A stretch of 20,000 nucleotides of DNA. Origin: an uncultured virus (IMG/VR IMGVR_UViG_3300008219_000006). Lineage: Duplodnaviria > Heunggongvirae > Uroviricota > Caudoviricetes. The notes under the pieces are model-generated. The model searched no databases. It had not been told where the DNA came from and saw nothing but the letters and a program-made list of their open reading frames with translations. This document shows positions 3,001 to 19,940 of this stretch, piece after piece. The DNA is taken from IMG/VR virus record IMGVR_UViG_3300008219_000006; one strand, written 5' to 3'. Both the position numbers and the translations under genes were made by a program. The first letter of the stretch is position 1; every line of letters begins with the position of its first letter.

Positions 3001-6000
3001 TTGTAATGTTAGGAAATTACCATACCCATGAATATATAGATGGATTCTTTGTAACCTCTGAAGATTATTCAGGTCTTGATGAAGATTCCGAAATTGATAT
3101 TGATAAAGCAAGAGATATAATTAGTAGCTTTGGTGAATGGCGAAAGAATACTTTAGGTAAGCATGTTGGTATTCAATTACAAAACGCTACTTTGGCAAAT
3201 AGAAGACCAGAAGCGTTAAATAATTTATCAGATGGGCTGAAAACAGCAGTTAATATTGAAGAGTTTGGTCCTAATGATAAGCCATTAATAAACATAACAC
3301 CAGAACAAGCTAAGACAAATGCAAAATCAAGAAGGGTAGAAGTTAAAGATACTGCTGAAAGTATAGGACAACTAGGTCTTGATCTGTTAAAAGCAACCAA
3401 ATTACTATCTAATCTGAAGAGATTAAATGGTAGGTATAGTAATATCGGTCTTGTTGTAGCTCAACTAAAGCAAGCTGGTTTGGAAAACCTTAATTTTGAT
3501 CATCCTATTTTCCATACAGAACTTAGTCCGGTCATTCTAAAACATGCAGGAGATATAATGTATGATGCTAAGAATGAATTAGATCTTACAGAACTGTATC
3601 CTCTTGATATTACAATTGATGGTATTAAATCTGATGATTACTTGAATGTTATTGTAGATATTAATGAACTAGAGAATATTCTTACTGCTCTAGCTAGTCA
3701 AATAAATAACAAACTTCAGATTATGGTTAACGAGGGAATTAGGGGAGCCGATACACAGATCACTAATATGGATGAAGCTAGTCTTAATTTATATAAGCAA
3801 TATGAACTTGTTACTAGGCTTCATGAAGGACTGTTAGAACACATCTCAACAATGACTAATCCCTTGAGAAGGGGATGGGATAGAGATCTTGATAGTCAAT
3901 TCTTACAGCTTGGTGATACAACTTATGAAACAACTCCTCATGAATATCGTCAAACAGTTGAAAACTATTTTGCGAGAGGTCTTGGAGATATACAAAACAA
4001 AAGACTATGGGATGGATATAGAGATCTTTTTGAACAATATCTAATAACTAGAAAACCAGATCCCAAGAGTATAGACTTAGATATAAAAGAACTATATGAA
4101 CAAATTTTAAGGGATGAAGTAACCTTTGATCATAATAGTCAAATAACTCTTATGTACAAACTTGTTCAAGAAGTTTTAGGTATTGAGGATATAACTCAAC
4201 TAGGAGGACTTTCAGAAGGAAGTCGTTTGGCACTAGATTGGGTTTCGGCAGAAGAAGCTGGATTTGCTTTGGCTGATTTTATTTTCCGAAGAGAAGAAGT
4301 TTCCTTATATAGAAGAGTCGTTAAGAGAAAGAGTTCTTCAAAAACTGGCGAGGGTGAAATAACTAGTGAGCAGCAAATTACTGATAGCGAACAGGGAACA
4401 GAAACTGAATTACAAGCTAAATCAGTTAGAAGTGATATACCTTTGTCTGCTAGAAACCTAGCAAGAAATTGGGAAGAGTCTGTATATAGACATAGGATGA
4501 GAAAAAGTTTAGAGTATTTGACTACAGCAAGCGATGAGGAAGTTGAATTAGTTATTGCTAGTATTCGAGAAAGTGTTCCAAGTAAGGCAGAAGCTTATAA
4601 GAAGTATGCAGATGAAACAGGTAAGGATGTTAAAACTCTAACTGCTGAAGAAAAAACTAAAGCAATTAAAACTTTTTATCTTCCTGAGAAAGAGAAGGTA
4701 GCCAAGATGGCTACAACCTATTCATTCCTACCTCAGATGACAAATAGATCTCCCGGTGAAACAATTACTAACTTTGAACGATGGGAATCTTTTGTGTTTG
4801 AGGTTATGATGGATTGGCCTGTATTGGGAATGAATCTTATACATGATGGTAGATATTATACAGATGGTACTGTTGTTGAGTTTCTAGGAAAAGACGAATC
4901 ACATCAAAGGTATGCAGATGATAATGATCTTGATGTTGAAACTCTTACTGAAGATCAAATTAAAGAAGCCGAAAGAGTTTATCCTCCTGAGATGTTGCAC
5001 ATGAAACCTTCTACTGCTGCTAGAGGAACTAGAGCTCAGCGAAGTGAAGATAAAGTTCGTAAGGCAGCACATGCTGGTATGCCTATCGGTAAACTTACTT
5101 TAGCTGGATTCTTTACACAATGGGCTCATGGAAGACTTAATATTAACTTTGAAGAGTTTGCTAAATCTGCCTTAACTCTTGGCAATGAAACAGTAAAAAG
5201 TTTGGGAATCAATAATCTATTTAATTTTACATCAAGTAAAAACTATGCCGATCTTAATGCTGCTGGTATTCATTCACACTTTAGCGTATTAATGATGACA
5301 CCAAAAAACAGAGAGGCTGCTGAAGCTTTGTTGGATAAACTAGTAAACCAAAGAAACAAAGTTTTAGGAACTACTCCTGAAGATCAGTATCTTGAGGCTA
5401 GTGAGTTTGTATTAGAAACAGCTTTACATACATTAGAAATATCTGGATTGCATACAGATATTTTTCCGGGTATACAATCTTTAGAGAAGATTGCTGCTGA
5501 GTTTGATTTTGAAGGGGTTTTAAAAGATATTAAAGCTGGTAGAAAAAAAACTGCAAGAGTCGAAAAATTCAGAAAACTTATAAAGCACCCTATTATGGTT
5601 AAACTTTATTGGGCTGGACAAGAAGGTATTAAAAGTTCTTTTAGTGATGCAAAGGATGCGGGACTGCTTGAAGGATTTACTGAACAGGACTTAGATTGGT
5701 TTGCTCTCTTCTTAGCTCAAGGTGGTGCAGTTTTGCGACACAATCTACTTAACCATGCTCTTCAAAATAAAGACGGTAAGCCTACTAGCGATGTTCTTGG
5801 AGAATCTATGGGCGTTGATATGGGCGATAGACAAGAGGCTCTCAGGATATTAAAAGACTTAGCCAATCAAGAAACAGATGTTGTTAAAAATTATATGGAC
5901 CTGTATGGCAAACAAATTGAAGGCAGAGATACAAAAGCAAGAACTCTTGAAAAATCCTTAGAAGATTTTGTGAGTGCTAAAGCTTTATATCTTGCACAAG

Positions 6001-9000
6001 GAGATCTTGCTAGAGCAGAAGAACTTAAGCCTAAGATTAGAGCAGAACATAAAAAGAGAATTGAAAACCTACAAGAATATCTAAGAGAGAACGGACTAAA
6101 GGAAGAATCCTTAAATGATCCTGTAGTTATGAATCAACACAGAGGAGAAATTGAAAGAATAATGATGGGTTGGGAGGGAGATGCATGGAAAGAAATGCCA
6201 ATGCTTCGTGCTATTAATGAAAAGAATGCTCAACCTGTTACTCTAGCAATAGATGAAAAAACCAAAGCTGCTGGAAAACCAGCTGGTATTGATATGGATC
6301 ATGTTGGAGAACATTGGTTAATGGGTAGCCTATTAGATAAGTTTACCCTGTTCATAGAATATGGAATTGATACCTCATCGGGTCGATACAATCCTATGGA
6401 TCCAAGTCCTTTGACACCATATAACTCAACTCTTGGATCTTTCCGTAGTGATGAAAAACCATACTCTATCTGGAAAACAGAAAACAATAGATTTGCTAAG
6501 ATGGCTACTGATGAAGAGGGTAATTTAGATCCTAAAAAGATGAGGGCTTATATAAATAGATTGATTGCTATTGACTTATCTATAAGAATGATACAAGACT
6601 ATGATCCTCCAATTCCAAATTTTGAACCATATACAGAAAAAGATTTCTGGGCAGATTGGCAAACAGAGTCAGATCATACAGTAGCTTCTAGAGAAAGAGA
6701 AATCAATTTTTGGGAAGATCCAGAAAACAATGATTATGAAATATCTAAAGAAGAATTCAATAAGAATACATATGGTGGGACAAGAGATCATAGGTCTAGA
6801 CCATTGTTTGCTAGGCGTAATATAGATTATAAGAGTAATCAAGAAATGAGTACTAAAGATCCTGCTGGTATCGCGGCTTTACGTCCTAGAACAGGAAAGC
6901 CCGGAAACCTAATGCATGACAGAGGATCTATGTTTCTTAGGAAAGAATCTTTAAATAGAAAGCTGAGAGAGAAAGAACAAAGATTAGAACATCTTCGTAA
7001 TACAATAAATACTACTGAAATTGATACTAATATTATGTCTGATATTATTAGTGGAGCACATCCTTTCCAATCTGATACATTACCTGTAGGACCAACACCA
7101 GATACTACAACCCTTTCTCATGTCTTTGGAGATACTATAGATGAACAAGTATACAGAGCTATACGAAACATTGAAAATAAGATTCGTCCTTGGGCTATGG
7201 AACGTGGTTACTATAAAGAAGTAAAAGATAATAAATGGGGACGATTGTGGATTATGTGGGAGATGGATCGTCTTCATAAGAATACTATTAGAGAAACAAG
7301 ACAAATCCTAAAAAGTTTTCGTGGAGCTGATGTTTGGGATCAGAACGATATAGAAATAGGAATGCGACAGATAAGACTTTCTTATTACGATAAGCTTTAC
7401 AAACTTCGATCAGTTGTACATGAACTAAGAAGTAAAGGCTTTGATTCTAGAGAAGCTGATATTATGGAAAATCAACTTAGTGCTCATATCAATATGGATG
7501 ATATGACCTATATCGAACTAGCAAGAACTCTAGCAGATAGCGGATTTGCTCAGGATTCAAGAGTCTTTACTCCAGCTCCTCATCATTTAATGGCTATTGA
7601 TCCAGAAACAGCAGCAGATCCTGTAGAATTTACAAGAACTGTTGAAGGTCCCATTGCTATGCATCACTTAGAGCAAGCATTAGCTGAGCATGAAATAGTA
7701 TTTATAAGTTATGTAAACGAAGAATTAAATATATTGTCTAAAGAAGATACTGAATTAGGGAAATATCTAAGGGATAAAAGAGATACTTTTGAAAGCGGTC
7801 GCCATCTTAATTGGAAAGACCTTCAAAATATGATGTGGTCTGAAAACGAAACTGTTAATCAATGGGCAATGGATATTCTAGATAAGGCTGAAAAGAAAGC
7901 TATTAATGCAGAGCATAAGAATTTTTATATCTACTTAGATCCTGACAGTGAAACTAGATCTACGATGACTTATGATAGAAAAGAAGAAGGAAATGTAAAA
8001 AGACTTTGGGGTGGATGGAGTCCGTTGATTTCACAAAAACCTATTGGTAGTGCAAGGTATCATCTGACTCCAGAAGGATTGCAACAACTATTTGTTAATA
8101 TTCGGTCTACCTTATTCAAGAAATTAGAAGATAGACAAATTACTGGCATTAGTACTCTGCACTCTGAACCATCTTTGGCTCAACGATTAGACTCTGGTTA
8201 TCAAGCAGATACTAGAAGATCTCACGAAGCGTTGTTAAAGGCGTTTGAACTTATGGGTGATACTGAAGTCGGAGACTATACTCTTGTTGATAAATCAAGA
8301 AGAAGTTCTTTTGATGATAGAGAACCTCAAAGAGTTCTTGATATAGATAAACTTTCAGGTATGAAGATAGTAACTGGTAATAGATTTGATCATGCTTGGG
8401 ATAGAGCTTACTACTCTCAGTGGGAAGCAACTAAAGAAGCTGCTAGAAGGCAAGGTAAAACAAGGCTACTAGATTATTTAATAAATCAAGAAGAGCTAAA
8501 TCCTGAACTTGTAAAAATACATGCTATATCATTACATGCTGAAAACTTTATGGGACTTGGTACTGAAGAAGCAAGAATATATGCAGCTGCTATAACAAAC
8601 AAAGATGTTGATTGGGTTGATAAAAATACTTTGTTACTAGATAATCTACAACAAGAGATTAACAAGTGGGAATTTTCAGGTCCTTTAGAAAAAGCTATTA
8701 TGGAATTAGAACGGCATCATAGAAATACATCTACAGAAAATACTTTAGATAGAACTAATGTAGATAATTTAAGAAAGGTATTAAAAGTATTTGGTATGGA
8801 AGATTCTGCTATAGATGCTATGCCTGAATTCAAGGATTATAATAAATGGATGAATAACGGTTTATCGGTAGTTATTGATATTGAAACTGATATTGCTGAG
8901 GATGGTGTTCCAACAAAAATATATCGAGTAGTTAAACATTATTCTAGGAAAAATACAAAAGCTGGTTTTATTTCTGAAGTTGTAACAGGAGAAGATTTAA

Positions 9001-12000
9001 ACAGTATTCTCGTAGAAATAGAAAGAGCTCAGCAAGCTGGATATAAGGTTGTTACTTATAACGGCAATACTTTTGACTTTAAGCATCTAGTTAGGTTAGG
9101 AGCAGATCCTAAGATAGCTGCAAGAATTGCTACTAGAAGCATTGATTTGTATAGTCTCTTAAGAAGAATGAAAGCTAATCAAGATAGTCGTAAGGGAAGC
9201 TTAGGACGAATATCTGAACTACTTAATCTTGGTAAGAAAAAAGAAATTGGTGGATATATGGTTCACCTTTTGGAATTAAGGAAAAGTGGAAAGACTTTAG
9301 ATAAAACAGATTTACCTATAGCCTATAGAAATGATGAAATAGCTATTGATGAATTAAATAAAATTAATGATATGGATTCATCTGATCCATCTTTAGAAAC
9401 TCGTATTGTAAACTATACTCTTGAAGACGGTGTATTAACAAATAAACTATTTGCGGAGTTGTTAAAACGTCAAGGAGAAACTAATATTAGTCTTGGAGAA
9501 ATTGGAACTCTTGATTTAGTTACAGAACTGTATCCAAACTGGGCATTAGATATAGATGGAACTAGAGCTGTAACTAATAAAGATGCCTTTAAATGGATAG
9601 ATGATGTAGTTATTCCTAAGCTTATTGGTAAGGAAGAAGATACTTCTGACTTTGGATTGCATAACAAAGGGTTTGTGACTGAAACTGGGAGTAGATTTAG
9701 AGATCGAGCAGAGAGAGAAGCAAAAGAATTCTTTAGAAGAGGAAGGCTTTGGGCTGATAAGAGAGAATTCAATGAACAACGAGATAAACTAAACGGTAAG
9801 AACTACGATGCAATCGAGGTCTTGTCGTATCAAGACTTTATTAATGAGGTTTTAGGAGAATCAGTTACACTAACAGAAAATGATGGAAGACTAATGGCAG
9901 CTAAATATGCTATGGAAGCTATTATGGCTGAGCGTAAACCTACAGAACTTAATCTATTAGATTTAACTAGAGGTATAGATGAAGATGTAGATTTATCCGA
10001 TCTTGGGGATTCTAAAAAATTCGATCTTGTCTTTATACACAATGATGCTGCTCTTAAAATGAATAAAACATTATCTAGAGCAGAGAGAGATGGTACTCTT
10101 AAACCAGAAGTAGTAGTTGGGTTGAGAATAATGTTTGCTCATTTAGCTAGAATGAATCCAGACTTCTTTAGAACAGTCGAGTTTGAGATAGATCCTAGTG
10201 ATATATTCGATACTCAAGGAAGAAGGCAACGGGGTAGATTTGGTATTAAAGATAATAAATTCCATATGATTATAGATCCAAGAGAATCTACCGATGTTCA
10301 GATTGTTGAAATTGCTCTTCATGAAATCATAGGACATATGGGCGTTGAGAAGTTTGTTAGAAAGAATGAAGCTGATTGGGTAAGTATGGTTGAATGGCTA
10401 AGAACTGCTTCTGGTAGAAACGTAGTTGCAGACTTTGTAAAATCAAATCCAAAATATAGTCACTTAACTGAAGCAGAAAAGAATAAGAAAGTTGAATATT
10501 ACCAAACAAATCCTGAAGAATGGGCTGCTCTTTATATTTCTTATCAGCTTATGAAGGATGTTACTCATGATTCTATGATTGATATCAATAATCCTAAAAT
10601 TAATAGATCTCTAAGAGGCATGATTAATAAGATTGTGTCTTCAATAAGAAACCATCTTCAAACAATTACCGATGCTTTGTTTAGGTTTAGAAAGACATAT
10701 CCTCAAGCATATGAGATGATGGAACGAATTACAGAAAATGCTTATGGTTATCAAACAAAAGGTAATATAAGATATAGAAGAGAAGCACAAACTCCAAATC
10801 GAGTAGCAAACGATTATGAATCTACCCATGAAGGATCTGATACAGAAAACATGTATTCTTTTCTTAATCCCTTAGCCGGAGAACAGGGAGATAATGCTCT
10901 TACTCTTCATGCATTTGATAAAAATAGTGGGGTTAAGATGGGAACTCCTTTGAAGAAGGGAGAGCTTTCTGGACTAGCTAAGACAGAAGAAATTGAAACA
11001 TGGGTAAGAGAAGAAGAAAACGCTAGAAGAACTCGTATTGATTTAAGAAATGAATTAAATAATCTTACTATAGGTTCTGCTGAACACATCGCTAAACAAA
11101 TAGAGTTTGATAATGCTGCTAAAAAAGAAGGAGAAATATCTCAAAGAATAAGTGATAATGAATATAATAATCTTTTTGGACAATCAAGAAGAGAAGTAGC
11201 AGATAATAAAGTTGAATTAGCTAGAAGGTTTGGTGACGAACAAGTAGTTGATTATATGTTGGGTGATGAAGCTAATGGGTTTGTTATGAAACAACAACAA
11301 TACAACGCAGGTAAGCTAAGAGAGATAATGACTTCTAGTAAACAAGAAGATATTACATTAGCTAAAACATTCCTAGCTTTGTCTTTTGAAAATATGATTA
11401 AAAAGCGTGGAGACTATGTAAGAGAAAACGCAGAACGATGGTTATCTATGTTTCCTCATATATACATGAGATTAAACAGATTGGCAACAGGTGGTCTTGC
11501 TGGTCTTAATACTACTCAATCAGATCAAACATATTTAAATACCATTATTCCTATTGTTATCTTAAGTAATCTAGTTGTACCCGGACTTGAAAATGTTTCT
11601 GGTAATGTACAAAATACAAAGGGATGGGATAGTTTGGATGATAGGCGAAACGAGTTGTTTGATATAGAAGAAGCAGCTAGAGAGTATGATAAAGAATTTG
11701 TTAAGAATACTGTTGATGGTAAGACTATGACAGAAGTACAATTTGATCAAATAAAAGAACTATCTCTTTCTTTAATCAATGATCCATCTAGTGTCTCTTC
11801 CAGCCATCCTTTTTATGATTTAGCTAGAGAATATTCTAAGACATCTGAACAACTCATACAAAGAGCTACTGATTATCTTGTTAATGCCCGTGTATTACAA
11901 GAAAGACATTTAGAAAAACCAGAGCATAGACTTATGCTATCTTTAAACAAAACAAAAATAGGAGATCTTATATCTAAGAATCCAGATGTTATTACTCAAG

Positions 12001-14765
12001 CTAAGGATGAAATAAGAAGACAAGTTTTAGAAAATCTGTCTTTAACAGATACTTCATCTATTGTAGATCCTGTTTCTCTATATGCTTCTGGTATTCTACC
12101 TGACATAACATCAAGTGAAGTTAATCTTACTTTTATTAGAGGTTGGGATGATATGCCTTTGGTTATCAGAAATAAGATTGATCAAGAAATTAAAAACGAT
12201 CCTTCATTAATGACAATAACTGAATGGGATAGTGACATGCTTATGCTTGATACTAATCCTAGCTCTGAAGCTAAAGCTAGATTAAAGATATATAAAATTC
12301 GGAAACAAAAGGTTGAAGCATTATATAAGAAAGCAGATTACGGTGCTACTACTTTATCAGATATTATAGGATCTGGTACTTCTGCTGGAGAAGCAGCTTC
12401 TATCATATCACAATATAATTCTTCATTAGAAGCACACAATACTTCTTTAGTAGATAAGTTTAGAGCACATTCTGGAAGTTATCTGGCAACTATGATTCTT
12501 AGTGGAAATGGTTTAGCGAGAGATTCTGGTACTCATATGTTATTTACAAGTAAGGAAGCCAATAGTGTTGTTGGATTTAAATCATATCTTCTTATGAATA
12601 GAATTGGTTCTACTGCTTTTATTCCCCATTCAATTGTTGGAATACCTAAGTCTTATGAATTAATGACAAACGATAAAACAAAGATGTTGTTTAATACCGA
12701 TGTAGGTAGTATATCACGGGCTCTTACAAGAGGACCGGGATGGAATGCTGGAACAATTCTAGTAATGAAGGAATTTACTAATTCAAATATAAACTTTTCT
12801 GACTTTCTGGATATGTTTAGAAATGTTATTGATAACTCGCCTGATTTAGATAGTATTAATGTTATAGATCAGTCTGTTCTAAACCTTAGTACAAAAATGA
12901 GAACTGATCTTAAAAGCAAGATATTAGATGATATTGAAACTCTAAGAAGAAAGATGCAGATTACTGGTGGTATTGCACTTAGACAATATAATAGATGGAA
13001 TAGTGCAATTGATACTGCAAATGATTTTACTTCTACTTTGTTAGGACCAAACCTAACAGTAGCTACGCTAACTGTTGAAGGTATGATGAATACTACCTCT
13101 CTTATGTTTGGCGGTCCTCAAGGATTAAAGAACTTTGCAACTGCTGTGATTGATTCTATAGCATTTGCTTCTTCTGGTAGTACTAAAAAAGGACGTAGCC
13201 AAATGCGTCAGCTTGCTAGAGAAATGGGATGGTATGCAAAACATAAGAGACATAGTATGTTTGAAGTACACCGTTCTGTTCTTTATGGCGATGAACTCCA
13301 TGATGATGAAGTAGGTGGGCTTAAAAGATATCTTAGAAGAACTAAAACTTATTCTAATAGTGTAAACGGTGGTATTAATATTGCTCTTAGAAGTCAATCT
13401 ACTATGTCCTATAGAAAATGGTTTGCAGAAATTCTTGGAAATGATAAGCTTAAAGAATTAATTATTAAAGTAAATGATGCTAAAGAAAAAGGTGAGTTTA
13501 AAACTAGAGCAGATATTAAGAGGGTAGTAAAAGAAGTACTAGGTTCTTCTCATGGAAGAACTGAAGCTGTTTATCAAATGGCTAAAGCTGGTCTTTTAGA
13601 TCTTGATATTCTACCTGATATTAAAACTCTTATTGATGAATCTGATGTTGTATATGGTGTACATACTTATGGTGGTAGAATGAGAAACTACATAAGCGAA
13701 AAGACAGATACAGCAGAAAGAACAAGACTTAATGAGGTATTGCGGAAAATGAAGAATTGGGAAAATATCGTAGTACATATGAATATTGTTGATCCTAATG
13801 CTATGGATATTGATACAACGGATGTTCCTTTGTTTAGATGGTTAAGGCATTATAAGTCTTATCCAAATATCTTTGCTGCTCAAAGAGTTTTTAGAGATTC
13901 GTCTAAATATAGTTTACCAGCCTTTGTAGCTCGTATGTTCCGTTTCATGCTTCAGGAAATGATATATGCTATTATCACTATGCTAGCCGCCGGAATGTCA
14001 GCAGCTGTCTTAAAAGAAAGGTTTGAGAAAAACCCAATTAGTGAGATGACTGCACTCTTGCAAAGAAGTCCTATGTTAGGATACTGGGGAGAATTCATTG
14101 CTTCTACAGTAAGAACTATGCTATCAGCAGCCTCTGGAAAACTAGACGCTACTCCTTTGGCTAGAACTTTACTACCTGTAGGTGGTTCTCTTATGAGATC
14201 TCAATCTCAATCTTTGGTCAATGCTATTAGAGGTAATACTGATGGAGGAGACTGGGCAAACTATGCTCGTATGTTAACTCTAGCTCCTGTCCCAGTCCTT
14301 GGACAAATTGCAGGTAATCCATTTACTAGGATAGCTGTAAGTAGAACAATGGGTAAAGAGAAGTCAGCCAATAGTATGAGACAGAAGATGGGGGACAGAC
14401 TTGGGAAACCTAATGGTCGAGACAGCTTAAGAAATGGATTAGGTACGACCGTGGAACCCTCGGACTCAAGTCTATCCTCAAGAAATGTCTTCTTTACACC
14501 TGAGGAAAAGAACCTAAGTAATATCATGAAAGAACTATATCCAGATGCTATGAATTCACCATATGTTACAGATGTTGGTGTTTCTATAGATCCTGATGAT
14601 ATTAAAACTCCAGAAGCATCTCAAGTTATTCCTCAGTTACCTCCAAGAGATACTCCAGAGCCTAAGAGCAGTCGTGTCGATATTGCTAGTAAGAAACCTG
14701 ACCCGATCCAAGCTATTTCAGAGTCTTCAAAACCTATGGAGATACCTCCAGAATTAATTGAATAA
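3..14765 (+). CDS. Giant virion-ejected polyvalent protein, 5'-partial (>4915 aa), with RNAP-like, exonuclease, metallopeptidase and gp16-like regions
   Basis: Uninterrupted frame from base 3 (CGC AGT CTT CTC TAT TTG...) to TAA ending at 14765, so the true start lies upstream of the window. Motifs: YADLNAAGIHSHFSVLM and RKLIKHPIMVKLYWAG (single-subunit RNAP motifs A and B); VIDIET / YNGNTFD / YTLED (Exo I-III); HEIIGH...PEEW (zincin). No Cys seen on reading the translation. Confidence 0.9.
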   Translation, partial: RSLLYLETGVKTTEQILDVIMPTRWASFVGTKLGYVDNLTFSEKMSDALHFRKAAFTRRLKLAPFDALEGFIEGSIVHIADANERGANWTLGSMIQEGGIEAVVSIGLNPTMRAAMQGGSGLLGAGAQLTNKFVSKNNDPVITDLMNRASRIVFRPRSLEEQMEAVDKYDKFIEFGSRYKNIFGEYSHAERIEAGEAKYLFPTDPKRANRERNFLDSLFDTVQLLAQAQNVENQTSWTLNKMDEILSMLEKKVKDEKRPSMGIKEAAELSIKSLIGSIDAVVKADPDFDINLANNLKNMIASEYKTFLLLDIARNHVDPITGEKKELTIEEVIEKIDPTKDEFDVNLWFKTFTEAERELLNDEMDRRGLKLEDITDDPKLTQEIVEKVTEDWMGRTEDTRRLEDDAQKKRIEHASALSDFLEQPITIQDIRTGETIVVGGDRYTGTPLTIDEAIKKKNDTADEVESEPEIDEEEVEITELTPREQRIIRNSQERLQKGLEAYKKAKTPKEKKSALKQIANAVWKTEGRLNKITKERAGKEIIDLQNESQGILTKENIEIGPDKAGDPMDFNRVDTEVSDIKGETADTSENFVILQVKQPVIRQGNERLQYAKVVLTPAEKFTPEPIDAPQTIVPTEPPAEPKKKTKSQRRKLLEKANDAEAVAEGSFEKISEDRKEMLIDVNNIDIELAQLKAQLDQMSDEFYETEEGKKIKEIADKQAKLNEKRNELLREMGFESRTHSVDGSSLKSVKEAIISFAKEDIESEKNRLKEIEKDTNILENTKRVLAKKLGKDATDNDKQELLKQKRSILLKFLTNKRNNDTVAGIAKAAEIPVEFIKALKNNEVVSLEEFDRILSNTKIQSYLTGIIKDVKKYGTLEADVVKNNIEKANERITNAGTLASKWMENVKSGRKNLHELGKAQRAASKVHKYQEMTELRAKIANVSLAKGTSVARLADIQPDFDNLVELAYIKQVISDTKASKRDLKQRMKGKRTITKADLKIVMLGNYHTHEYIDGFFVTSEDYSGLDEDSEIDIDKARDIISSFGEWRKNTLGKHVGIQLQNATLANRRPEALNNLSDGLKTAVNIEEFGPNDKPLINITPEQAKTNAKSRRVEVKDTAESIGQLGLDLLKATKLLSNLKRLNGRYSNIGLVVAQLKQAGLENLNFDHPIFHTELSPVILKHAGDIMYDAKNELDLTELYPLDITIDGIKSDDYLNVIVDINELENILTALASQINNKLQIMVNEGIRGADTQITNMDEASLNLYKQYELVTRLHEGLLEHISTMTNPLRRGWDRDLDSQFLQLGDTTYETTPHEYRQTVENYFARGLGDIQNKRLWDGYRDLFEQYLITRKPDPKSIDLDIKELYEQILRDEVTFDHNSQITLMYKLVQEVLGIEDITQLGGLSEGSRLALDWVSAEEAGFALADFIFRREEVSLYRRVVKRKSSSKTGEGEITSEQQITDSEQGTETELQAKSVRSDIPLSARNLARNWEESVYRHRMRKSLEYLTTASDEEVELVIASIRESVPSKAEAYKKYADETGKDVKTLTAEEKTKAIKTFYLPEKEKVAKMATTYSFLPQMTNRSPGETITNFERWESFVFEVMMDWPVLGMNLIHDGRYYTDGTVVEFLGKDESHQRYADDNDLDVETLTEDQIKEAERVYPPEMLHMKPSTAARGTRAQRSEDKVRKAAHAGMPIGKLTLAGFFTQWAHGRLNINFEEFAKSALTLGNETVKSLGINNLFNFTSSKNYADLNAAGIHSHFSVLMMTPKNREAAEALLDKLVNQRNKVLGTTPEDQYLEASEFVLETALHTLEISGLHTDIFPGIQSLEKIAAEFDFEGVLKDIKAGRKKTARVEKFRKLIKHPIMVKLYWAGQEGIKSSFSDAKDAGLLEGFTEQDLDWFALFLAQGGAVLRHNLLNHALQNKDGKPTSDVLGESMGVDMGDRQEALRILKDLANQETDVVKNYMDLYGKQIEGRDTKARTLEKSLEDFVSAKALYLAQGDLARAEELKPKIRAEHKKRIENLQEYLRENGLKEESLNDPVVMNQHRGEIERIMMGWEGDAWKEMPMLRAINEKNAQPVTLAIDEKTKAAGKPAGIDMDHVGEHWLMGSLLDKFTLFIEYGIDTSSGRYNPMDPSPLTPYNSTLGSFRSDEKPYSIWKTENNRFAKMATDEEGNLDPKKMRAYINRLIAIDLSIRMIQDYDPPIPNFEPYTEKDFWADWQTESDHTVASREREINFWEDPENNDYEISKEEFNKNTYGGTRDHRSRPLFARRNIDYKSNQEMSTKDPAGIAALRPRTGKPGNLMHDRGSMFLRKESLNRKLREKEQRLEHLRNTINTTEIDTNIMSDIISGAHPFQSDTLPVGPTPDTTTLSHVFGDTIDEQVYRAIRNIENKIRPWAMERGYYKEVKDNKWGRLWIMWEMDRLHKNTIRETRQILKSFRGADVWDQNDIEIGMRQIRLSYYDKLYKLRSVVHELRSKGFDSREADIMENQLSAHINMDDMTYIELARTLADSGFAQDSRVFTPAPHHLMAIDPETAADPVEFTRTVEGPIAMHHLEQALAEHEIVFISYVNEELNILSKEDTELGKYLRDKRDTFESGRHLNWKDLQNMMWSENETVNQWAMDILDKAEKKAINAEHKNFYIYLDPDSETRSTMTYDRKEEGNVKRLWGGWSPLISQKPIGSARYHLTPEGLQQLFVNIRSTLFKKLEDRQITGISTLHSEPSLAQRLDSGYQADTRRSHEALLKAFELMGDTEVGDYTLVDKSRRSSFDDREPQRVLDIDKLSGMKIVTGNRFDHAWDRAYYSQWEATKEAARRQGKTRLLDYLINQEELNPELVKIHAISLHAENFMGLGTEEARIYAAAITNKDVDWVDKNTLLLDNLQQEINKWEFSGPLEKAIMELERHHRNTSTENTLDRTNVDNLRKVLKVFGMEDSAIDAMPEFKDYNKWMNNGLSVVIDIETDIAEDGVPTKIYRVVKHYSRKNTKAGFISEVVTGEDLNSILVEIERAQQAGYKVVTYNGNTFDFKHLVRLGADPKIAARIATRSIDLYSLLRRMKANQDSRKGSLGRISELLNLGKKKEIGGYMVHLLELRKSGKTLDKTDLPIAYRNDEIAIDELNKINDMDSSDPSLETRIVNYTLEDGVLTNKLFAELLKRQGETNISLGEIGTLDLVTELYPNWALDIDGTRAVTNKDAFKWIDDVVIPKLIGKEEDTSDFGLHNKGFVTETGSRFRDRAEREAKEFFRRGRLWADKREFNEQRDKLNGKNYDAIEVLSYQDFINEVLGESVTLTENDGRLMAAKYAMEAIMAERKPTELNLLDLTRGIDEDVDLSDLGDSKKFDLVFIHNDAALKMNKTLSRAERDGTLKPEVVVGLRIMFAHLARMNPDFFRTVEFEIDPSDIFDTQGRRQRGRFGIKDNKFHMIIDPRESTDVQIVEIALHEIIGHMGVEKFVRKNEADWVSMVEWLRTASGRNVVADFVKSNPKYSHLTEAEKNKKVEYYQTNPEEWAALYISYQLMKDVTHDSMIDINNPKINRSLRGMINKIVSSIRNHLQTITDALFRFRKTYPQAYEMMERITENAYGYQTKGNIRYRREAQTPNRVANDYESTHEGSDTENMYSFLNPLAGEQGDNALTLHAFDKNSGVKMGTPLKKGELSGLAKTEEIETWVREEENARRTRIDLRNELNNLTIGSAEHIAKQIEFDNAAKKEGEISQRISDNEYNNLFGQSRREVADNKVELARRFGDEQVVDYMLGDEANGFVMKQQQYNAGKLREIMTSSKQEDITLAKTFLALSFENMIKKRGDYVRENAERWLSMFPHIYMRLNRLATGGLAGLNTTQSDQTYLNTIIPIVILSNLVVPGLENVSGNVQNTKGWDSLDDRRNELFDIEEAAREYDKEFVKNTVDGKTMTEVQFDQIKELSLSLINDPSSVSSSHPFYDLAREYSKTSEQLIQRATDYLVNARVLQERHLEKPEHRLMLSLNKTKIGDLISKNPDVITQAKDEIRRQVLENLSLTDTSSIVDPVSLYASGILPDITSSEVNLTFIRGWDDMPLVIRNKIDQEIKNDPSLMTITEWDSDMLMLDTNPSSEAKARLKIYKIRKQKVEALYKKADYGATTLSDIIGSGTSAGEAASIISQYNSSLEAHNTSLVDKFRAHSGSYLATMILSGNGLARDSGTHMLFTSKEANSVVGFKSYLLMNRIGSTAFIPHSIVGIPKSYELMTNDKTKMLFNTDVGSISRALTRGPGWNAGTILVMKEFTNSNINFSDFLDMFRNVIDNSPDLDSINVIDQSVLNLSTKMRTDLKSKILDDIETLRRKMQITGGIALRQYNRWNSAIDTANDFTSTLLGPNLTVATLTVEGMMNTTSLMFGGPQGLKNFATAVIDSIAFASSGSTKKGRSQMRQLAREMGWYAKHKRHSMFEVHRSVLYGDELHDDEVGGLKRYLRRTKTYSNSVNGGINIALRSQSTMSYRKWFAEILGNDKLKELIIKVNDAKEKGEFKTRADIKRVVKEVLGSSHGRTEAVYQMAKAGLLDLDILPDIKTLIDESDVVYGVHTYGGRMRNYISEKTDTAERTRLNEVLRKMKNWENIVVHMNIVDPNAMDIDTTDVPLFRWLRHYKSYPNIFAAQRVFRDSSKYSLPAFVARMFRFMLQEMIYAIITMLAAGMSAAVLKERFEKNPISEMTALLQRSPMLGYWGEFIASTVRTMLSAASGKLDATPLARTLLPVGGSLMRSQSQSLVNAIRGNTDGGDWANYARMLTLAPVPVLGQIAGNPFTRIAVSRTMGKEKSANSMRQKMGDRLGKPNGRDSLRNGLGTTVEPSDSSLSSRNVFFTPEEKNLSNIMKELYPDAMNSPYVTDVGVSIDPDDIKTPEASQVIPQLPPRDTPEPKSSRVDIASKKPDPIQAISESSKPMEIPPELIE
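1545..1856 (+). other. GrpE-like domain within the giant protein
   Basis: Helical segment ending ...QGILTKENIEIGPDKAGDPMD...FVILQVKQPVIRQGNERLQYAKVVLT resembles the GrpE C-terminal pattern (GV..I...G.PFDP...V..V.Q.GY...GR.LR.A.V.V). By-eye match only. Confidence 0.45.
4830..5640 (+). other. T7/N4-type single-subunit RNA polymerase core within the giant protein (DxxGR-like motif, motif A, motif B)
   Basis: In the correct order: IHDGRYY (~4842), D-LNAAGIHSHFSVLM (Asp codon 5250; cf. T7 DGSCSGIQHFSAML), DQY (5382; cf. T7 DIY) and R-x3-K-x3-M-x3-Y-x2-G (5571-5618; cf. T7 RSVTKRSVMTLAYG). Motif C not confidently identified. Confidence 0.7.
8862..9465 (+). other. DEDDy (DnaQ-like, RNase H fold) 3'-5' exonuclease domain within the giant protein
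   Basis: ExoI VVIDIET (D 8877, E 8883), ExoII VTYNGNTFD (9057-9077), the typical SIDLY...SLGRISELLNLGKK segment, and ExoIII NYTLED (9414-9428). Confidence 0.85.
10200..10560 (+). other. Zincin-like metallopeptidase (MPTase-type) domain within the giant protein
   Basis: RGRF...MIID...IALHEIIGHMG (HE at 10320-10325, H at 10335) with a downstream PEEWAA (10512-10529), the pattern of metallopeptidases found in phage polyvalent proteins. Confidence 0.75.
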
Positions 14766-14780
14766 TTGGGTAAAGGAGAG

Positions 14781-15883: not shown

Positions 15884-15893
15884 GAGTGAACCT

Positions 15894-15927
15894 ATGGCAC
15901 TACAGGCTACCGCTTGTAGTGTCATTT
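15894..15927 (+). terminator. 14-bp RNA hairpin with TACC loop; terminator or RNase III-type processing site
   Basis: ATGGCACTACAGGC-TACC-GCTTGTAGTGTCAT with two G.U pairs, 10 nt after the stop codon; only a short T run follows. Confidence 0.5.
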
Positions 15928-15987
15928 GCCCTAGGTTAGTCGGGGCTGCAAAGTGACTAACTGAGTTCTTCCATAGGAGGCACTGCG

Positions 15988-16191
15988 ATAGCAGAACCTA
16001 CTAAGAAGTCCGAAGCTATTGAGCGTTTGTTTCGTGAACTCAATGGTGGCGTGGACAGGCGTACTATGATCGACTCCGATCTGTGTGCGGTCTGTGCTCA
16101 GCCAGCTACTGAGTTCAGCGACGCGCTCAGCCGCAAGGAATACACCATCTCTGGTATGTGTCAAGCATGCCAAGATAGTGTGTTCCGCTAG
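15988..16191 (+). CDS. Small CxxC...CxxC zinc-finger protein (67 aa), not in the ORF track; probable ATA start
   Basis: AGGAGG (15975-15980) + 7 nt + ATA GCA GAA CCT gives (M)AEPTKKSEAIERLFRELNGGVDRRTMIDSDLCAVCAQPATEFSDALSRKEYTISGMCQACQDSVFR*. In-frame TAA at 15958; first in-frame ATG only at 16066. Confidence 0.8.
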   Translation: MAEPTKKSEAIERLFRELNGGVDRRTMIDSDLCAVCAQPATEFSDALSRKEYTISGMCQACQDSVFR

Positions 16192-16244
16192 CGGTTAGCG
16201 TCGGAACAACGTCCCTCCGCCTGAGGTTTCGCCCTAGGGAGGGG

Positions 16245-16287
16245 CTTCATACCTGTGCTCTTCTCTATGGAGAGCACGGGTATGAGG
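16245..16287 (+). promoter_or_regulatory. 19-bp intergenic RNA hairpin, candidate RNase III site upstream of the RNAP gene
   Basis: CTTCATACCTGTGCTCTTC-TCTAT-GGAGAGCACGGGTATGAGG; the non-Watson-Crick positions are G.U pairs on the + strand. Confidence 0.5.
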
Positions 16288-16511
16288 TACACGTTGTATC
16301 TCGTTCGACCTAAGCATGTCGTTAAAGGGCTTATGCTGATTCTTCCAAGGAAGAGTAGACTCAGGAGACGAGTCCGACTGAGGGCGTGATTCTCAAGGGG
16401 TTTTTAAACCGACAGGTTTTTGATCCTATTGCACTTGTTGTGCATTCCTTTACTCTCTGGGATAAAGAGAGGAACCCTTTACTACTTTCGAGTAGTATAA
16501 AGGAGATAATT

Positions 16512-18305
16512 ATGAAGAAATTCATAGTTATGCTTGAGGCTCTGCCCAAGCGTTATCGGGAACCTCTGGTCGCCTTCGGGTTGACTAAGTTCATCACCCT
16601 TCGTATTCAGCTACGTAGGGACAACCGCAGTATCCATCAGATCATTGATCAGATGCGAGAACAGGTTGGTCTGTCTAACTTTGGTTACTCTTTGAGTCTT
16701 GATGACTTGAAGAAGGCCGAGTTGGCGATTTGCGCTGGTGATGCCGTACTTCCTTCGACTGATCGTATGGAGGGGTACGTTTTGGAATCACCGCACGTAG
16801 TTGGTCGGGACGATTCAAGGCGATCCGTCATGAGTCGTAACGGTAATGCTCAAGTTCCTAAGCGTGTGACGAACGCACTTAACTATCTCGGTAGTGTGGG
16901 TTTTGATATCCACCCTGAGATGGAGCACCTTCTTCTGGATAATAAGGAGAAGTGGTTGTGCGATCAGACCAAGCCGTTGTATCTTGAGCTGGAGCGAATT
17001 GAGGATTGGGATAAGTTCTTCCTAACCTCCTACCTCGATTGGAGAGGTCGCTTCTACGCAGGTTCTGGTATCCTGTCTTATCAAGGAGATGCCACTAATC
17101 GTGGGTTGGTCTGCTTTGCAGATCCATCTCCTTTCTCCGATAAGCAATGGGATTCCATTCGTACTTTCCTTCGTGGAGAGTATGGTGTCGCTCCCGATGT
17201 TCTCTCGTTTGCTTCTGAGGACTATACTCTTAAGCAACAGGCAGGATGGCTAGCACAAACAGATCGCACATTTGCCGAGCGATATATTGTGCAGCTCGAT
17301 ACCCACAGTTCTGGTCCACTTATGGTGGCTCTCATGATGAGAGACGAGCGTTTGTTGCGTGTCATCCTAACTTCAGACTTTTATATGGCGTTCCTTAAGC
17401 CGTATATGGAGTCTGGCACATCTTGGGCCAAGAGGCTGAGTGCTATATCTGAGGACGAAACTAGAGATCAGGTTGCTAAGCCCTGTGGTATTAACACCAT
17501 GTATGGGACAGCGGCTGATGCTCTGGCATATTCGTATGCAGGATTGACAATCAACGGTGTTACGCCTGAGATGTCTATCCTTGATTCTGGCAGCAAAAGT
17601 GATCCTAAGCCCGGTTTGGTGTCACTCCTTGAAACTGGAGTGGTTCTTGAATCGAATCTATCTTGGGAGATCCAACCCTGTCTTCGTCCTTACTTGATGA
17701 GTCTGTCCGTTTCTGAACGGTTACGACAGCTCTGCTACCTCGCAAGAGATATGCAGAACGCACTCTTCAGTGAGTTTCCCTCCATTAGGGTTTATCTCAA
17801 CACACTCTCTGGTGCTGCTAATAGCTGGTGGAAGAATACGCAAACTTCTTTCAGTTTCCAGCACCCTCTTGATAAGAATATCATCATCAAGCCTTTCCCG
17901 CACAAGCGTACTGATGTGCCTGTAAAGGATTATATTGATATTCGTGTCCTTTCCAAACGGCTCCGTAGGAACTTGTGTCCAATGGAGTTTGGTCGAGGTC
18001 GAGTCTCTGCGTGTGCGCCTTGCTTCACACACATGATTGATGCCGTGATCGTGACCCTTGTGGTTAACGAGTGCGAGCGAATGGATATTCCTATCGCTCC
18101 TATACACGACTCCTTCGGTGTGCCGATAGCTTATGTTGATGTTGTTAAAGACATCTTCAAGCAAGTCGTGATCTGGATGTTCACTGAGAATGATTATCTA
18201 GGTGACTTCTGCAAGGCTCATGACAAGACCCTCCCTGAGCGGTCTAGTCTTTCCGAGTTTGACATTGAAAGTCTGCTCGATGAGCTTCCATCCTGTATAG
18301 GGTGA
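16512..18305 (+). CDS. Compact T7/T3-type single-subunit DNA-directed RNA polymerase (597 aa)
   Basis: AAGGAG SD before ATG 16512. YLDWRGRFY (Asp 17037), QGDATNRGLVCFA, motif A QLDTHSSGPLMVALMMRDE (Asp 17298), DFY, motif B RDQVAKPCGINTMYG (17463-17507), APCFTHMIDA (cf. T7 APNFVHSQDG), motif C IHDSFG (18102-18119). Confidence 0.93.
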   Translation: MKKFIVMLEALPKRYREPLVAFGLTKFITLRIQLRRDNRSIHQIIDQMREQVGLSNFGYSLSLDDLKKAELAICAGDAVLPSTDRMEGYVLESPHVVGRDDSRRSVMSRNGNAQVPKRVTNALNYLGSVGFDIHPEMEHLLLDNKEKWLCDQTKPLYLELERIEDWDKFFLTSYLDWRGRFYAGSGILSYQGDATNRGLVCFADPSPFSDKQWDSIRTFLRGEYGVAPDVLSFASEDYTLKQQAGWLAQTDRTFAERYIVQLDTHSSGPLMVALMMRDERLLRVILTSDFYMAFLKPYMESGTSWAKRLSAISEDETRDQVAKPCGINTMYGTAADALAYSYAGLTINGVTPEMSILDSGSKSDPKPGLVSLLETGVVLESNLSWEIQPCLRPYLMSLSVSERLRQLCYLARDMQNALFSEFPSIRVYLNTLSGAANSWWKNTQTSFSFQHPLDKNIIIKPFPHKRTDVPVKDYIDIRVLSKRLRRNLCPMEFGRGRVSACAPCFTHMIDAVIVTLVVNECERMDIPIAPIHDSFGVPIAYVDVVKDIFKQVVIWMFTENDYLGDFCKAHDKTLPERSSLSEFDIESLLDELPSCIG

Positions 18306-18310
18306 AGCCC

Positions 18311-18346
18311 AGCCCTCTCTACCTTAGCGGGTAGGGAGGTGCTTTT
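18311..18346 (+). terminator. Rho-independent terminator after the RNAP gene
   Basis: CCTCTCTACCT-TAGC-GGGTAGGGAGG followed by TGCTTTT, just after the TGA ending at 18305. Confidence 0.65.
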
Positions 18347-18396
18347 GCTCACAGAACGTCTGTGAGTGTCTTTGTCCCTTTTCTTAGGAGGTTGCT

Positions 18397-18843
18397 ATGA
18401 AAAGCAACAAATCAATCCTTCTTAAAAGTCAAGAAGGATATTCAATGGTGTGCTTCACTATCAAGCCATCCTCGAACATGGTAACGGTTACCAAGACGCG
18501 AAAGCCCTTGGTTACCATCCCATTGTTTGATCTGGCTAGCCGTGTGAAGGAGGAACTCTCCCTTGGTTTCAAGATTGAGGAAGTTCCGTCTAGTCTGCGG
18601 CACTTTGAGGCTGACACCATTAACTACCAGTACGATATCGAGGGTATGGTAACGATGTGGGCTAATATAGAAGAGATTCTATGTAATTCTCTCATATCTT
18701 CCTATACTCTTGGGGTCAAGGGTGGTGACTTTGGGTTAGCTAAGAAAGCTTTCTTTGATACTTTCAATGCACATCACAAAGGCTCTAAGACTCTTCGTAT
18801 TCGTAGTGGATTAGCTGACGCTCGCTATACGCGGATCAGTTGA
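18397..18843 (+). CDS. Hypothetical protein (148 aa)
   Basis: Strong SD AGGAGG(T) just upstream of ATG 18397; followed by a hairpin. No motif recognised. Confidence 0.85.
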   Translation: MKSNKSILLKSQEGYSMVCFTIKPSSNMVTVTKTRKPLVTIPLFDLASRVKEELSLGFKIEEVPSSLRHFEADTINYQYDIEGMVTMWANIEEILCNSLISSYTLGVKGGDFGLAKKAFFDTFNAHHKGSKTLRIRSGLADARYTRIS

Positions 18844-18849
18844 TCTCAG

Positions 18850-18883
18850 GGGCTTACACCTCTTACCAGAGGGTAGGTCCTTT
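18850..18883 (+). terminator. Terminator-like hairpin with TACC loop
   Basis: GGGCTTAC-A-CCTCT-TACC-AGAGG-GTAGGTCC followed by TTT, just after the stop at 18843. Confidence 0.55.
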
Positions 18884-18887
18884 CCAG

Positions 18888-19082
18888 TCTCGCCTTCGGC
18901 GGGAACAACCTTCGGTTTCAACCTTCGGTTCAACCTTCGGTTCAACCCTTCGTACTACCGGAACTTCGTACCTGATTCCCTTCGGGCTCCATTCTCCGGC
19001 CCTTCGTGCCTCTCAGGCTTCGCCTCAGGGCTTTCAGCCCCTCGGAGGTCCTTCGGACCCCCCTAGGAACGCTTCGCTTAGG
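18888..19082 (-). repeat. Array of about 11 mini-hairpins with TTC (+ strand) / GAA (- strand) triloops, including three tandem CAACCTTCGGTT copies
   Basis: CGCC-TTC-GGCG, AACC-TTC-GGTT x3, GGAAC-TTC-GTACC, CCC-TTC-GGG, GGCCC-TTC-GTGCC, AGGC-TTC-GCCT, GGGCT-TTC-AGCCC, GGTCC-TTC-GGACC, GC-TTC-GC. Confidence 0.85.
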
Positions 19083-19231
19083 AACGATTCTCTGGTCAGG
19101 AGCGGGGACCCCCGCGTTTATGGGAACCCCTGCTTTTTTCCCATCAACCTTGCGCCGTCCACCGGAGCTGTTGGACATCCAACCATCTTTGGTAAGTCCA
19201 AGGTCAGCTCCTCGTGTACGGCTATGTGAAG

Positions 19232-19352
19232 CGAAGAGGGAGATGTTATGGCATATTAGTGCTAAAATCTTAAGGAATTACTCCAAAGCGTAATGCGGCT
19301 TAAGATTGATCAGTCCACCGACGCGAGGCTGACTTAACATCTCCTCTCTTCG
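19232..19352 (+). ncRNA. Candidate structured RNA (four-way junction), family unknown
   Basis: 17-bp closing stem CGAAGAGGGAGATGTTA / TAACATCTCC-T-CTCTTCG enclosing three hairpins (19249-19264, 19266-19307, 19310-19332) in a gene-free interval. Confidence 0.45.
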
Positions 19353-19410: not shown

Positions 19411-19458
19411 CAGAGATTTAAATTCATTTAGCTTTAACCGATCTAGGGAGGATCAATC

Positions 19459-19683
19459 ATGACTCAAATCGTCATAGAAATCTACCACCCATACTCCGTT
19501 GCTGTTCAATGCGATGGTGACTGGGACTGTTATAACTGCCTAACGGAGGCAGCTGAAGTAGCAAAGGGCTACATGATGGAGCACCCAGATGCCTCCATCG
19601 AAATCGTGAACTCATTTGCCACGAACGAGTGGCAACAACGAAAGTGGCGGCGAAGGCTCGCCAGAGAGGAAGTCATATCATGA
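19459..19683 (+). CDS. Hypothetical protein (74 aa)
   Basis: GGAGGA SD 6 nt before ATG 19459; its stop overlaps the next start (ATGA). Confidence 0.8.
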   Translation: MTQIVIEIYHPYSVAVQCDGDWDCYNCLTEAAEVAKGYMMEHPDASIEIVNSFATNEWQQRKWRRRLAREEVIS

Positions 19684-19940
19684 CTCAACTAGACAAGTTC
19701 CGTAATGCGGAACAATACAAGGACACGATTCTTCGTGGAATCGCGCTCAACCCCAAGGCAGGAACTGCCCGTGGCAATGCCAAGGAAGTCTTGTCTGAAC
19801 GAGGTGTAACCCTCGAAAGCGTAGTCGAGAAGGACTACAGTACTCTGGACGAAGGACAGCTGGAAAACATCATCAGCATGGAACATTCCAGAGAAGCAAC
19901 GAAGGCTGCTGCTCAAACTGAGCTTGACAGTCGAAACTAA
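19680..19940 (+). CDS. Hypothetical protein (86 aa)
   Basis: ATG 19680 in an ATGA overlap with the upstream stop, GAGGA upstream, in frame with the listed ORF 19629..19940; followed by a terminator. Confidence 0.8.
   Translation: MTQLDKFRNAEQYKDTILRGIALNPKAGTARGNAKEVLSERGVTLESVVEKDYSTLDEGQLENIISMEHSREATKAAAQTELDSRN

Follow-up and report, generated by a model that had tools for sequence, protein, structure and literature searches.

A gene for a miniature single-chain RNA polymerase of the T7 family accompanies that of a full-size enzyme in uncultured T7-like phages

Introduction

The single-chain RNA polymerase (RNAP) of bacteriophage T7 (gene 1; Protein Data Bank (PDB) IDs 1cez, 1h38, 1msw and 8dh5) is the workhorse of in-vitro transcription and orthogonal gene expression, and its N-terminal domain is thought to be essential to find and open promoters. 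Here we analyze a stretch of 20,000 nucleotides from an uncultured virus of the Caudoviricetes (IMG/VR IMGVR_UViG_3300008219_000006), the whole of which is called the window below, where a gene encodes a miniature T7-family RNAP (mini RNAP, P0001). The polymerase domain fold of the T7 enzyme (residues 267–883) is common to the mini RNAP, which keeps the DxRGR motif, the Asp of motif A, the Lys, Tyr and Gly of motif B, the counterpart of H784, the His-Asp pair of motif C and the C-terminal tail. In contrast, it is devoid of nearly all of T7 residues 6–272, has a shorter thumb, belongs to a clade of its own and coexists with a true T7-like RNAP. Lacking the N-terminal domain, the mini RNAP is not a T7-type enzyme proper.

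Two other groups of enzymes offer a closer functional comparison. The RNAPII of phage N4, formed by gp15 (269 aa) and gp16, binds single-stranded DNA (ssDNA) only and needs gp1 and gp2 (PMC4496689). Like the mini RNAP, this is a minimal T7-family enzyme which, at a comparable overall size, lacks a complete promoter-binding domain, and it is likewise encoded among the early genes. Moreover, N4 is a podovirus with a giant virion-type protein bearing polymerase motifs, as is the present phage, where this protein is known from sequence. However, N4 RNAPII is a heterodimer, split after the DxxGR motif, with gp15 and gp16 encoded by separate genes, whereas the mini RNAP is a single chain, and N4 transcribes its late genes with the host RNAP, whereas this phage has a canonical T7-like RNAP. 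In addition, no match to a gp2-like protein was obtained in Pfam and PHROGs scans of the window and of the proteins of the overlapping record G001 (described below). As judged from its single chain and its separate clade, the mini RNAP is not an orthologue of N4 RNAPII.

The second group, the mitochondrial RNAPs such as yeast Rpo41 and human POLRMT, are unable to melt promoters by themselves and rely on Mtf1 or TFB2M (PMC4496689). They match the fold of the mini RNAP with Z values of 22–27 (e.g. 8c5u_A, Z 27.3, 446 residues aligned), close in strength to the T7 match, but their chains have roughly double the length and carry large extensions at the N-terminus, and no homologous initiation factor was seen for the mini RNAP. 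Much more distant is the N4 mini-vRNAP (gp50 residues 998–2103; PDB 2po4 and 3c2p), which has a T7-family core, uses DNA-hairpin promoters and gives a fold match of Z 16–17; it is a better comparison for the giant protein encoded upstream of the mini RNAP.

Results

The mini RNAP gene and its catalytic motifs

The mini RNAP gene (Table 1) is read as one uninterrupted frame without internal stops. Pfam family PF00940 was detected in the product with 40.9 bits against a cut-off of 22, the match being limited to residues 495–583, and the PHROGs profiles placed it in phrog_414, "RNA polymerase" (E 1.9e-26), with phrog_2051, on the side of N4 RNAPII, appearing at E 0.009. Together with the fold match presented below, these results go far beyond chance and bear out an earlier reading of the window, made from its letters alone (the sequence-only reading), which had proposed a 597-aa single-chain T7-type RNAP in this frame. 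The gene is real and under purifying selection, with dN/dS values of 0.11–0.19 in six out of six close pairs of mini-family genes. Its GC content is 0.48 versus 0.34 for the giant gene upstream, the early region ranging from 0.45 to 0.50 and the giant gene from 0.32 to 0.36.

Gene callers preferred a longer frame with a GTG start at 16386, giving 639 aa (P0002). This form was rejected, as the extension is not conserved in the homologue encoded by the related record G002 (P0003, 56% identity) and the similarity between both proteins starts at a shared LPKRYREPL block.

Alignment to the T7 RNAP of NC_001604 (883 aa) located all the catalytic motifs. The distance from D176 to D263 is 87 aa, compared to 116 aa between D421 and D537 in T7; these figures, as well as the motif A sequence and the R-x4-K spacing of motif B, had been given in the sequence-only reading and all hold. 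Residues D263, K323, Y331, H507, D510 and D533 were invariant in alignments of 146 and of 98 RNAPs, and the six C-terminal residues of the mini RNAP align with T7 878–883, the C-terminal tail being thus kept. The classical form of motif B is R-x3-K-x7-YG, while the R-x4-K spacing and a Pro after the Lys are common to most members of the mini family. In T7 RNAP, Y639 is the rNTP selector and R627 contacts the NTP phosphates.

A HMMER search with a two-sequence profile returned 935 proteins at E ≤ 0.001, and the best 13 out of 13 database relatives beyond the query's own cluster were 551–654 aa long. In these sequence comparisons, the relatives of the mini RNAP (about 550–680 aa) make up a diverse metagenomic family.

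Table 1. Coordinates in the window of the features discussed in the text.
Feature	Position	Strand	Basis or remark
Miniature T7-family RNA polymerase gene (mini RNAP, P0001, 597 aa, 68 kDa)	16512..18305	+	Open frame, PF00940, phrog_414, AlphaFold2 fold match
Shine-Dalgarno AAGGAG	16500..16505	+	6 nt 5' of the ATG at 16512, read from sequence
N-terminal ~90 residues of the mini RNAP, helical, family-specific, in place of the 266-aa promoter-binding domain of T7	16512..16781	+	pLDDT <50 for most of residues 1–87
DWRGR motif, residues 176–180 = T7 D421–R425	17037..17051	+	Alignment
Motif A DTHSSGP, catalytic D263 = T7 D537	17298..17318	+	D263 invariant in the 146- and 98-sequence alignments
Motif B RDQVAKPCGINTMYG, K323/Y331/G332 = T7 K631/Y639/G640	17463..17507	+	Alignments; R-x4-K, Arg shifted by one
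Basic beta-hairpin at the place of the T7 specificity loop, residues 467–492, TDVPVKDYIDIRVLSKRLRRNLCPME	17910..17987	+	Equal-length alignment to T7 745–769
Motif C IHDSFG, H532/D533 = T7 H811/D812	18102..18119	+	Alignments
Two terminator-like hairpins directly 3' of the mini RNAP gene	18314..18368	+	Stems of 11 and 10 pairs, each with a T-rich tail
148-aa ORF adjoining the mini RNAP gene, no family assigned	18397..18843	+	Conserved only in G002, 32% over 104 aa
86-aa protein, no known family	19680..19940	+	Downstream of the mini RNAP in 8/11 related fragments
3' part of the giant gene (>4920-aa ORF; 5306 aa in full; P0004), candidate injected virion polymerase	3..14765	+	Polymerase motifs, profile match
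Polymerase-like motifs of the giant gene	A, nt 5244–5297; B, nt 5571–5618	+	T7/N4-type motifs
Promoter-like motif AATAATTGGGTAAAGGAG	14761..14780	+	Head of the early region; also present just 5' of the canonical RNAP gene and at corresponding sites of G002

Predicted fold of the mini RNAP

A model of the mini RNAP built with AlphaFold2 (AF2) from an alignment of 98 rows showed a mean predicted local distance difference test (pLDDT) of 82.9 and a predicted template modelling score (pTM) of 0.83, and was confident for residues ~90–597 except for 464–493. T7 RNAP and mitochondrial RNAPs were its top matches in Foldseek and VIA-align. The comparisons with T7 RNAP gave overall Z values of 27–30 across model residues ~80–597 with 443–450 residues aligned (Foldseek E 1.5e-13); model residues 52–596 were superposed on T7 263–882 in chain 8dh5_M (Z 29.8, root-mean-square deviation 3.4, 443 residues aligned), and residues 87–597 on T7 267–883 in chain 1h38_A (Z 27.5, 448 residues aligned). 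The fold matches therefore describe the mini RNAP as a T7 polymerase domain headed by a short family-specific piece. This N-terminal piece of about 90 residues is well conserved with P0003 and weakly across the mini family.

When T7 RNAP was added to the 98-row alignment, no counterpart in the mini RNAP was found for the N-terminal T7 segments 6–131, 151–181, 186–205, 238–245 and 251–272. In T7 RNAP, the 6–272 region holds the AT-rich recognition loop and the intercalating hairpin. The thumb is shortened by ~50 residues (no counterpart for T7 348–361 and 365–400), and segments 472–495, 582–613 and 853–863 are also missing. Conversely, the mini RNAP carries two inserts with respect to T7 after motif B, at residues 342–368 (27 residues) and 381–394 (14 residues). 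A specificity-loop-like element appears to be kept, a low-confidence assignment, since residues 467–492 align with T7 745–769 and AF2 draws a beta-hairpin there, with strands at 474–479 and 482–487 (pLDDT <50). The hairpin is kept in 14 of the 17 aligned members of the mini family.

The sequence-only reading had put forward the loss of nearly all of the T7 promoter-binding domain, which was confirmed both by the multiple alignment and by a fold match starting at T7 262/267. The AlphaFold comparison to T7 RNAP that it had suggested likewise gave a superposing polymerase domain, a missing N-terminal domain and a low-confidence hairpin at the place of the specificity loop.

Two polymerase genes in one phage

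The IMG/VR record G001 (24,138 bp) corresponds to positions 11067–20000 of the window with two mismatches and continues 15 kb beyond it. On the 3' side of the mini RNAP gene it encodes small open reading frames (ORFs), a DUF932 protein, a canonical T7-like RNAP and then the replication genes. The canonical RNAP gene, located 5.8 kb downstream of that of the mini RNAP, consists of an 829-aa frame (~815 aa) with strong matches to PF00940 (E 9.3e-84) and phrog_414 (E 2.3e-156) and a C-terminus reading SDYFFS. It is followed by genes for a metallophosphoesterase, a gp2.5-like ssDNA-binding protein, RusA and a gp4-type primase-helicase with Toprim and DnaB domains, and next by those for a family A DNA polymerase, a dNMP kinase and a 5'-3' exonuclease. 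As a full-size T7-like RNAP is also encoded, the mini RNAP is a second polymerase and not the sole one of the phage. Moreover, the primase role envisaged in the sequence-only reading became less likely in view of this separate primase-helicase of the T7 gp4 type.

A second record, G002 (64,002 bp, 95% complete by CheckV), encodes both a mini RNAP and a canonical RNAP, 56% and 79% identical to the corresponding proteins. All its genes lie on one strand, in the order replication genes; portal, scaffold and capsid; tail tube proteins; terminase; a 1488-aa protein; a 366-aa transglycosylase; a 5199-aa giant protein; the mini RNAP; early ORFs; and the canonical RNAP. The source of the window is a marine T7-like phage of ~64–68 kb with two single-subunit RNAP genes, and probably three.

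No Pfam family was assigned to any of the six window ORFs that flank the mini RNAP gene, and among the 18 downstream ORFs of G001 an RNAP-family match was limited to the full-size RNAP. Neither RPOL_N nor any other RNAP N-terminal piece was detected by Pfam in those six flanking ORFs or in the 17 other downstream ORFs of G001, and the region 5' of the mini RNAP start gave no protein-level alignment with G002. A separately encoded N-terminal piece or an upstream frameshift, which the sequence-only reading had named as what would speak against it, was thus not found in the flanking and downstream ORFs or in the upstream frame.

Distribution and phylogeny of the mini family

A scan of IMG/VR with an alignment of nine mini polymerases returned 15 loci, nine of which carry a mini-family member of 590–682 aa; the other six matched through larger RNAPs alone. 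Eight of the nine also encode a canonical RNAP 5–6.5 kb downstream (812–834 aa, apart from one copy of 587 aa cut by the end of the locus), and the ninth ends just past the DUF932 gene that elsewhere precedes the canonical RNAP. With window/G001 and G002 counted in, the pair was present in 10 of 11 related fragments. The end of a giant ORF was found upstream in two of the IMG/VR loci, weakly similar to the C-terminal part of the giant protein of the window (E 1e-12).

In a tree of 80 rows obtained with FastTree, a quick method, with midpoint rooting and SH-like supports, the mini family formed a clade of 31 rows (support 99), apart from a clade of 49 rows containing all 30 canonical RNAPs and N4 gp16, the latter grouped with other short proteins inside that canonical side. 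The canonical RNAPs of the mini-bearing phages constituted one clade, and a long co-inheritance of both polymerases is suggested by the same grouping of the phages in the mini tree as in the canonical one.

Searches of GenBank phages with P0001 produced 181 records, none of them covering at least 80% of the query; among the matches listed, coverage was 31% (C-terminal) and identity below 28%, over canonical RNAP genes. With P0010 as query, 14 out of 1565 records reached at least 80% coverage, and among the matches listed the identity was 22–24% over annotated RNAP genes. Given this low coverage or identity, and as the matches are RNAP genes as annotated, no cultured phage with the mini family was seen among the GenBank records. 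There was no match to the mini RNAP among plasmid records, and IMG/VR scans for close relatives with single queries (P0001, P0007 and P0008) yielded nothing beyond G001 and G002. In the full-text literature, with subscription journals outside the coverage, we found neither a mini enzyme of this kind or a characterized homologue of such size nor any T7-like phage described as having more than one single-subunit RNAP, be it two or three. The mini RNAP is the smallest single-chain T7-family member met in the searches made here.

A giant upstream protein with polymerase motifs

The giant gene upstream of the early region has homologues in G002 (5199 aa, 38% identity) and in a further genome, G004 (5140 aa, ~21% identity). 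Its product shows MMDW..HDGRYY, YADLNAAGIHSHFSVLMM and RKLIKHPIMVKLYWAG in the order of T7-family enzymes, with a spacing of ~110 residues between motifs A and B. These two motifs, YADLNAAGIHSHFS and RKLIKHPIMVKLYWAG in the window, are kept in the giant proteins of G002 and G004, where the latter reads FDGNFNGIHH and LRKLFKKPVMVYLYGAG. In hhalign comparisons against a profile of 98 RNAPs, a single giant protein scored an E of 6e-4 (probability 28%), two giant proteins an E of 4e-4 (34%) and three giant proteins an E of 4.4e-6 (86.6%), over 102 columns spanning motifs A and B. As a lead, the ten best family-bearing neighbours of residues 1200–2380 in the ESM-Atlas were all PF00940 clusters (10/10, score 0.90). 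A PDB profile search with this region gave no match, and on the whole protein PHROGs found no family and Pfam RNase_H_2 alone (residues 2958–3087). From its motifs and profile match, a polymerase module inside the giant protein is likely. Its presence in the virion would follow from the place of its gene after those for a transglycosylase and a large protein in G002, by analogy with T7, in which the genes for the internal core proteins occupy the corresponding place in the genome.

The segment 2958–3087 of the giant protein is an RNase H-like domain (DnaQ-type, DIETD...NGNTFD), and a HEIIGH metalloprotease-like motif is also present.

Non-coding elements and small neighbouring genes

The promoter-like motif at the head of the early region belongs to a repeated element, AATAaTTGGGTaAaGGaG, found at 14761, 24058, 27855 and 35137 (window coordinates continued through G001) and in G002 (reverse complement) at 7243, 36869, 53586 and 60490. 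The copy at 24058 lies 46 nt before the start of the canonical RNAP, and the element is often followed by a short inverted repeat, e.g. ATGGAGT-AAC-ACTCCAT. On this sequence pattern, AATAaTTGGGTaAaGGaG may be a phage promoter or a processing site. A scan for sigma-70 promoters showed no enrichment (7 sites versus 6.2 expected), and when G002 was screened for repeats marking a further class of promoters, AT-rich noise dominated. Terminator-like sites, such as the two hairpins after the mini RNAP gene, were more frequent in the region than in shuffled sequences (14 versus 5.0 ± 2.4).

Among the small proteins encoded downstream, that of 86 aa is a candidate helper of the mini RNAP by position alone; a complex prediction for both proteins scored 0.00, which constitutes no verdict and has no bearing either way. 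The DUF932 protein (phrog_1221; G001 3404–4426, L004) has equivalents in 8 of the 11 fragments and is in every case encoded directly 5' of the canonical RNAP gene. A segment of ~1.5 kb with three small ORFs (14966–16191, + strand) is absent from G002 and resembles a variable early-gene cassette; it encodes a hydrophobic protein of 104 aa, a 122-aa protein and a 54-aa protein with two CxxC pairs (zinc-ribbon-like).

The non-coding region after the giant gene (14784–14925) contains CCTAGG repeats, a palindrome-like AT run of 25 nt (14800–14825) and CCCCCCGTACCCCCC, and a 37-nt element in it (14849–14885) is almost identical in G002, though the proteins are ~56% alike. The region could correspond to one end of the genome, to a signal for packaging or to early promoters. 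A further non-coding stretch of ~380 nt (18850–19230), part of which is conserved in G002, holds at least ten short hairpins whose cores are of the CTTCGG type and resemble UUCG tetraloops; three tandem AACCTTCGGTT units are among them. Rfam detected nothing meaningful in 14700–20000, with no match for the 18850–19230 array and no tRNA genes.

In four marine metagenome runs, the contig depth over ~14.9–19.2 kb was about twice that of the flanks, and contigs spanned the junction between the giant gene and the early region in three of the four. The doubled depth could be due to a long terminal repeat with the mini RNAP gene or to strain variation splitting the flanking contigs.

Discussion

The data presented above lead us to infer that the mini RNAP is a working, stripped-down RNAP of the T7 family, and there is about an even chance that it acts as a second transcriptase, dependent on a factor or on its template, within a polymerase relay similar to that of N4. 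Its gene opens the early region, following the giant gene and preceding that of the canonical RNAP. The enzyme would be made first and would transcribe a subset of early or middle genes. Its specificity-loop-like hairpin would read a short promoter, and opening of the DNA would need outside help, be it a small factor made by the phage, an ssDNA-binding protein, negative supercoiling, or a template that is already melted or forms a hairpin, with a helper logic perhaps as in N4 RNAPII and mitochondrial RNAPs. As raised already by the sequence-only reading, the enzyme may reasonably be expected to require an accessory factor or else templates made of ssDNA or hairpins. A more far-reaching scheme, which we regard as possible but rather unlikely, is that widespread uncultured T7-like phages of marine and freshwater origin use a relay of three RNAPs, in which the injected giant protein starts, the mini RNAP with a small helper takes the early or middle genes and the canonical RNAP finishes.

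Several observations weigh against the proposal of a helper-dependent second transcriptase. The start of the O-helix is unusual, as the column of T7 R627 holds Asp319 in the mini RNAP, with the Arg displaced to one residue earlier, and a Pro follows K323, so the sequence suggests that activity could be altered. Model confidence is low for the specificity-loop-like hairpin and for the N-terminal 90 residues, and none of 17 runs provided an RNA run carrying the stretch. Only one repeated promoter-like motif, AATAaTTGGGTaAaGGaG, was found; as copies of it lie ahead of both polymerase genes as well as of some later ones, it assigns no promoter set to the mini RNAP. By sequence, the mini family is no closer to N4 RNAPII than to T7-like enzymes, so the analogy to N4 is functional only. 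As for the giant protein, its RNAP module rests on the 102-column profile match, and the AF2 model of residues 1200–2380, from a two-row alignment, was unusable (pLDDT 36.9).

Transcription by T7 RNAP and by mitochondrial RNAP also serves for replication priming and origin activation, and the mini RNAP might likewise be specialized in one non-mRNA task, such as making replication primers, activating an origin by transcription or copying one structured template like the 18850–19230 array. We consider this improbable, even if the loss of the duplex-promoter domain would suit ssDNA or hairpin templates, the gene lies upstream of the replication module and the array of CTTCGG-type hairpins, partly conserved in G002, is only 550 nt away downstream: the phage encodes a gp4-type primase-helicase with Toprim and DnaB domains, the retention of the hairpin in 14/17 family members fits sequence-specific recognition of duplex DNA, and proximity is the sole tie between the array and the mini RNAP. 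Still less probable, in our view, is a virion-associated or very early "starter" polymerase acting beside the giant protein or instead of it, the giant protein being then no polymerase. The position of the mini RNAP gene in G002, directly after the ejection-protein block (transglycosylase and giant protein), is compatible with such a role, as is the unproven state of the RNAP module in the giant protein, with its unusable AF2 model and no match to PDB sequences. However, the gene has the base composition of the early region rather than that of the giant gene, a conserved non-coding element separates both genes, to which 1.75 kb with small ORFs is added in the window, and the giant protein retains motifs A and B across three distant homologues.

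The Asp at the T7 R627 position, the Pro after K323 and the shortened thumb could also be taken as signs of a catalytically weakened or inactive paralogue, working as a DNA- or RNA-binding regulator or as a decoy. This is quite unlikely, as the catalytic Asps, K323, Y331, H507 and the C-terminal tail show little or no variation in a family diverged to ~20% identity, the shifted Arg is itself conserved in the family, and the dN/dS values given above indicate constraint. Finally, split T7-like RNAPs do exist, N4 gp15/gp16 being an example (PMC4496689), so the short gene could in principle be an annotation artefact, i.e. a truncated or split gene with its N-terminal domain encoded elsewhere or reached through a frameshift. 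We give hardly any credit to this explanation: the gene has a strong Shine-Dalgarno site, the upstream frame is not conserved, neither the 1.75 kb on the 5' side nor the early ORFs on the 3' side include an RNAP-like ORF other than that of the full-size RNAP, lengths of 551–654 aa are seen in the best 13 of 13 database relatives, and nine out of nine independent viral contigs encode proteins of the same length class.

If the relay of three RNAPs indeed exists, the mini RNAP would represent a naturally minimal 68-kDa orthogonal transcriptase with a short promoter of its own. In any case, a single-chain enzyme one third smaller than T7 RNAP is kept under selection in many phages beside the full-size enzyme, which suggests that the T7 catalytic body can work as a separate module. 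The enzyme could also help to define what initiation minimally requires, and could yield new promoter/polymerase pairs as well as compact expression tools. For T7-like phages, our results further suggest a strategy like that of N4, with one polymerase brought along and a second one made; here the late step would be carried out by their own T7-type enzyme and not by that of the host.

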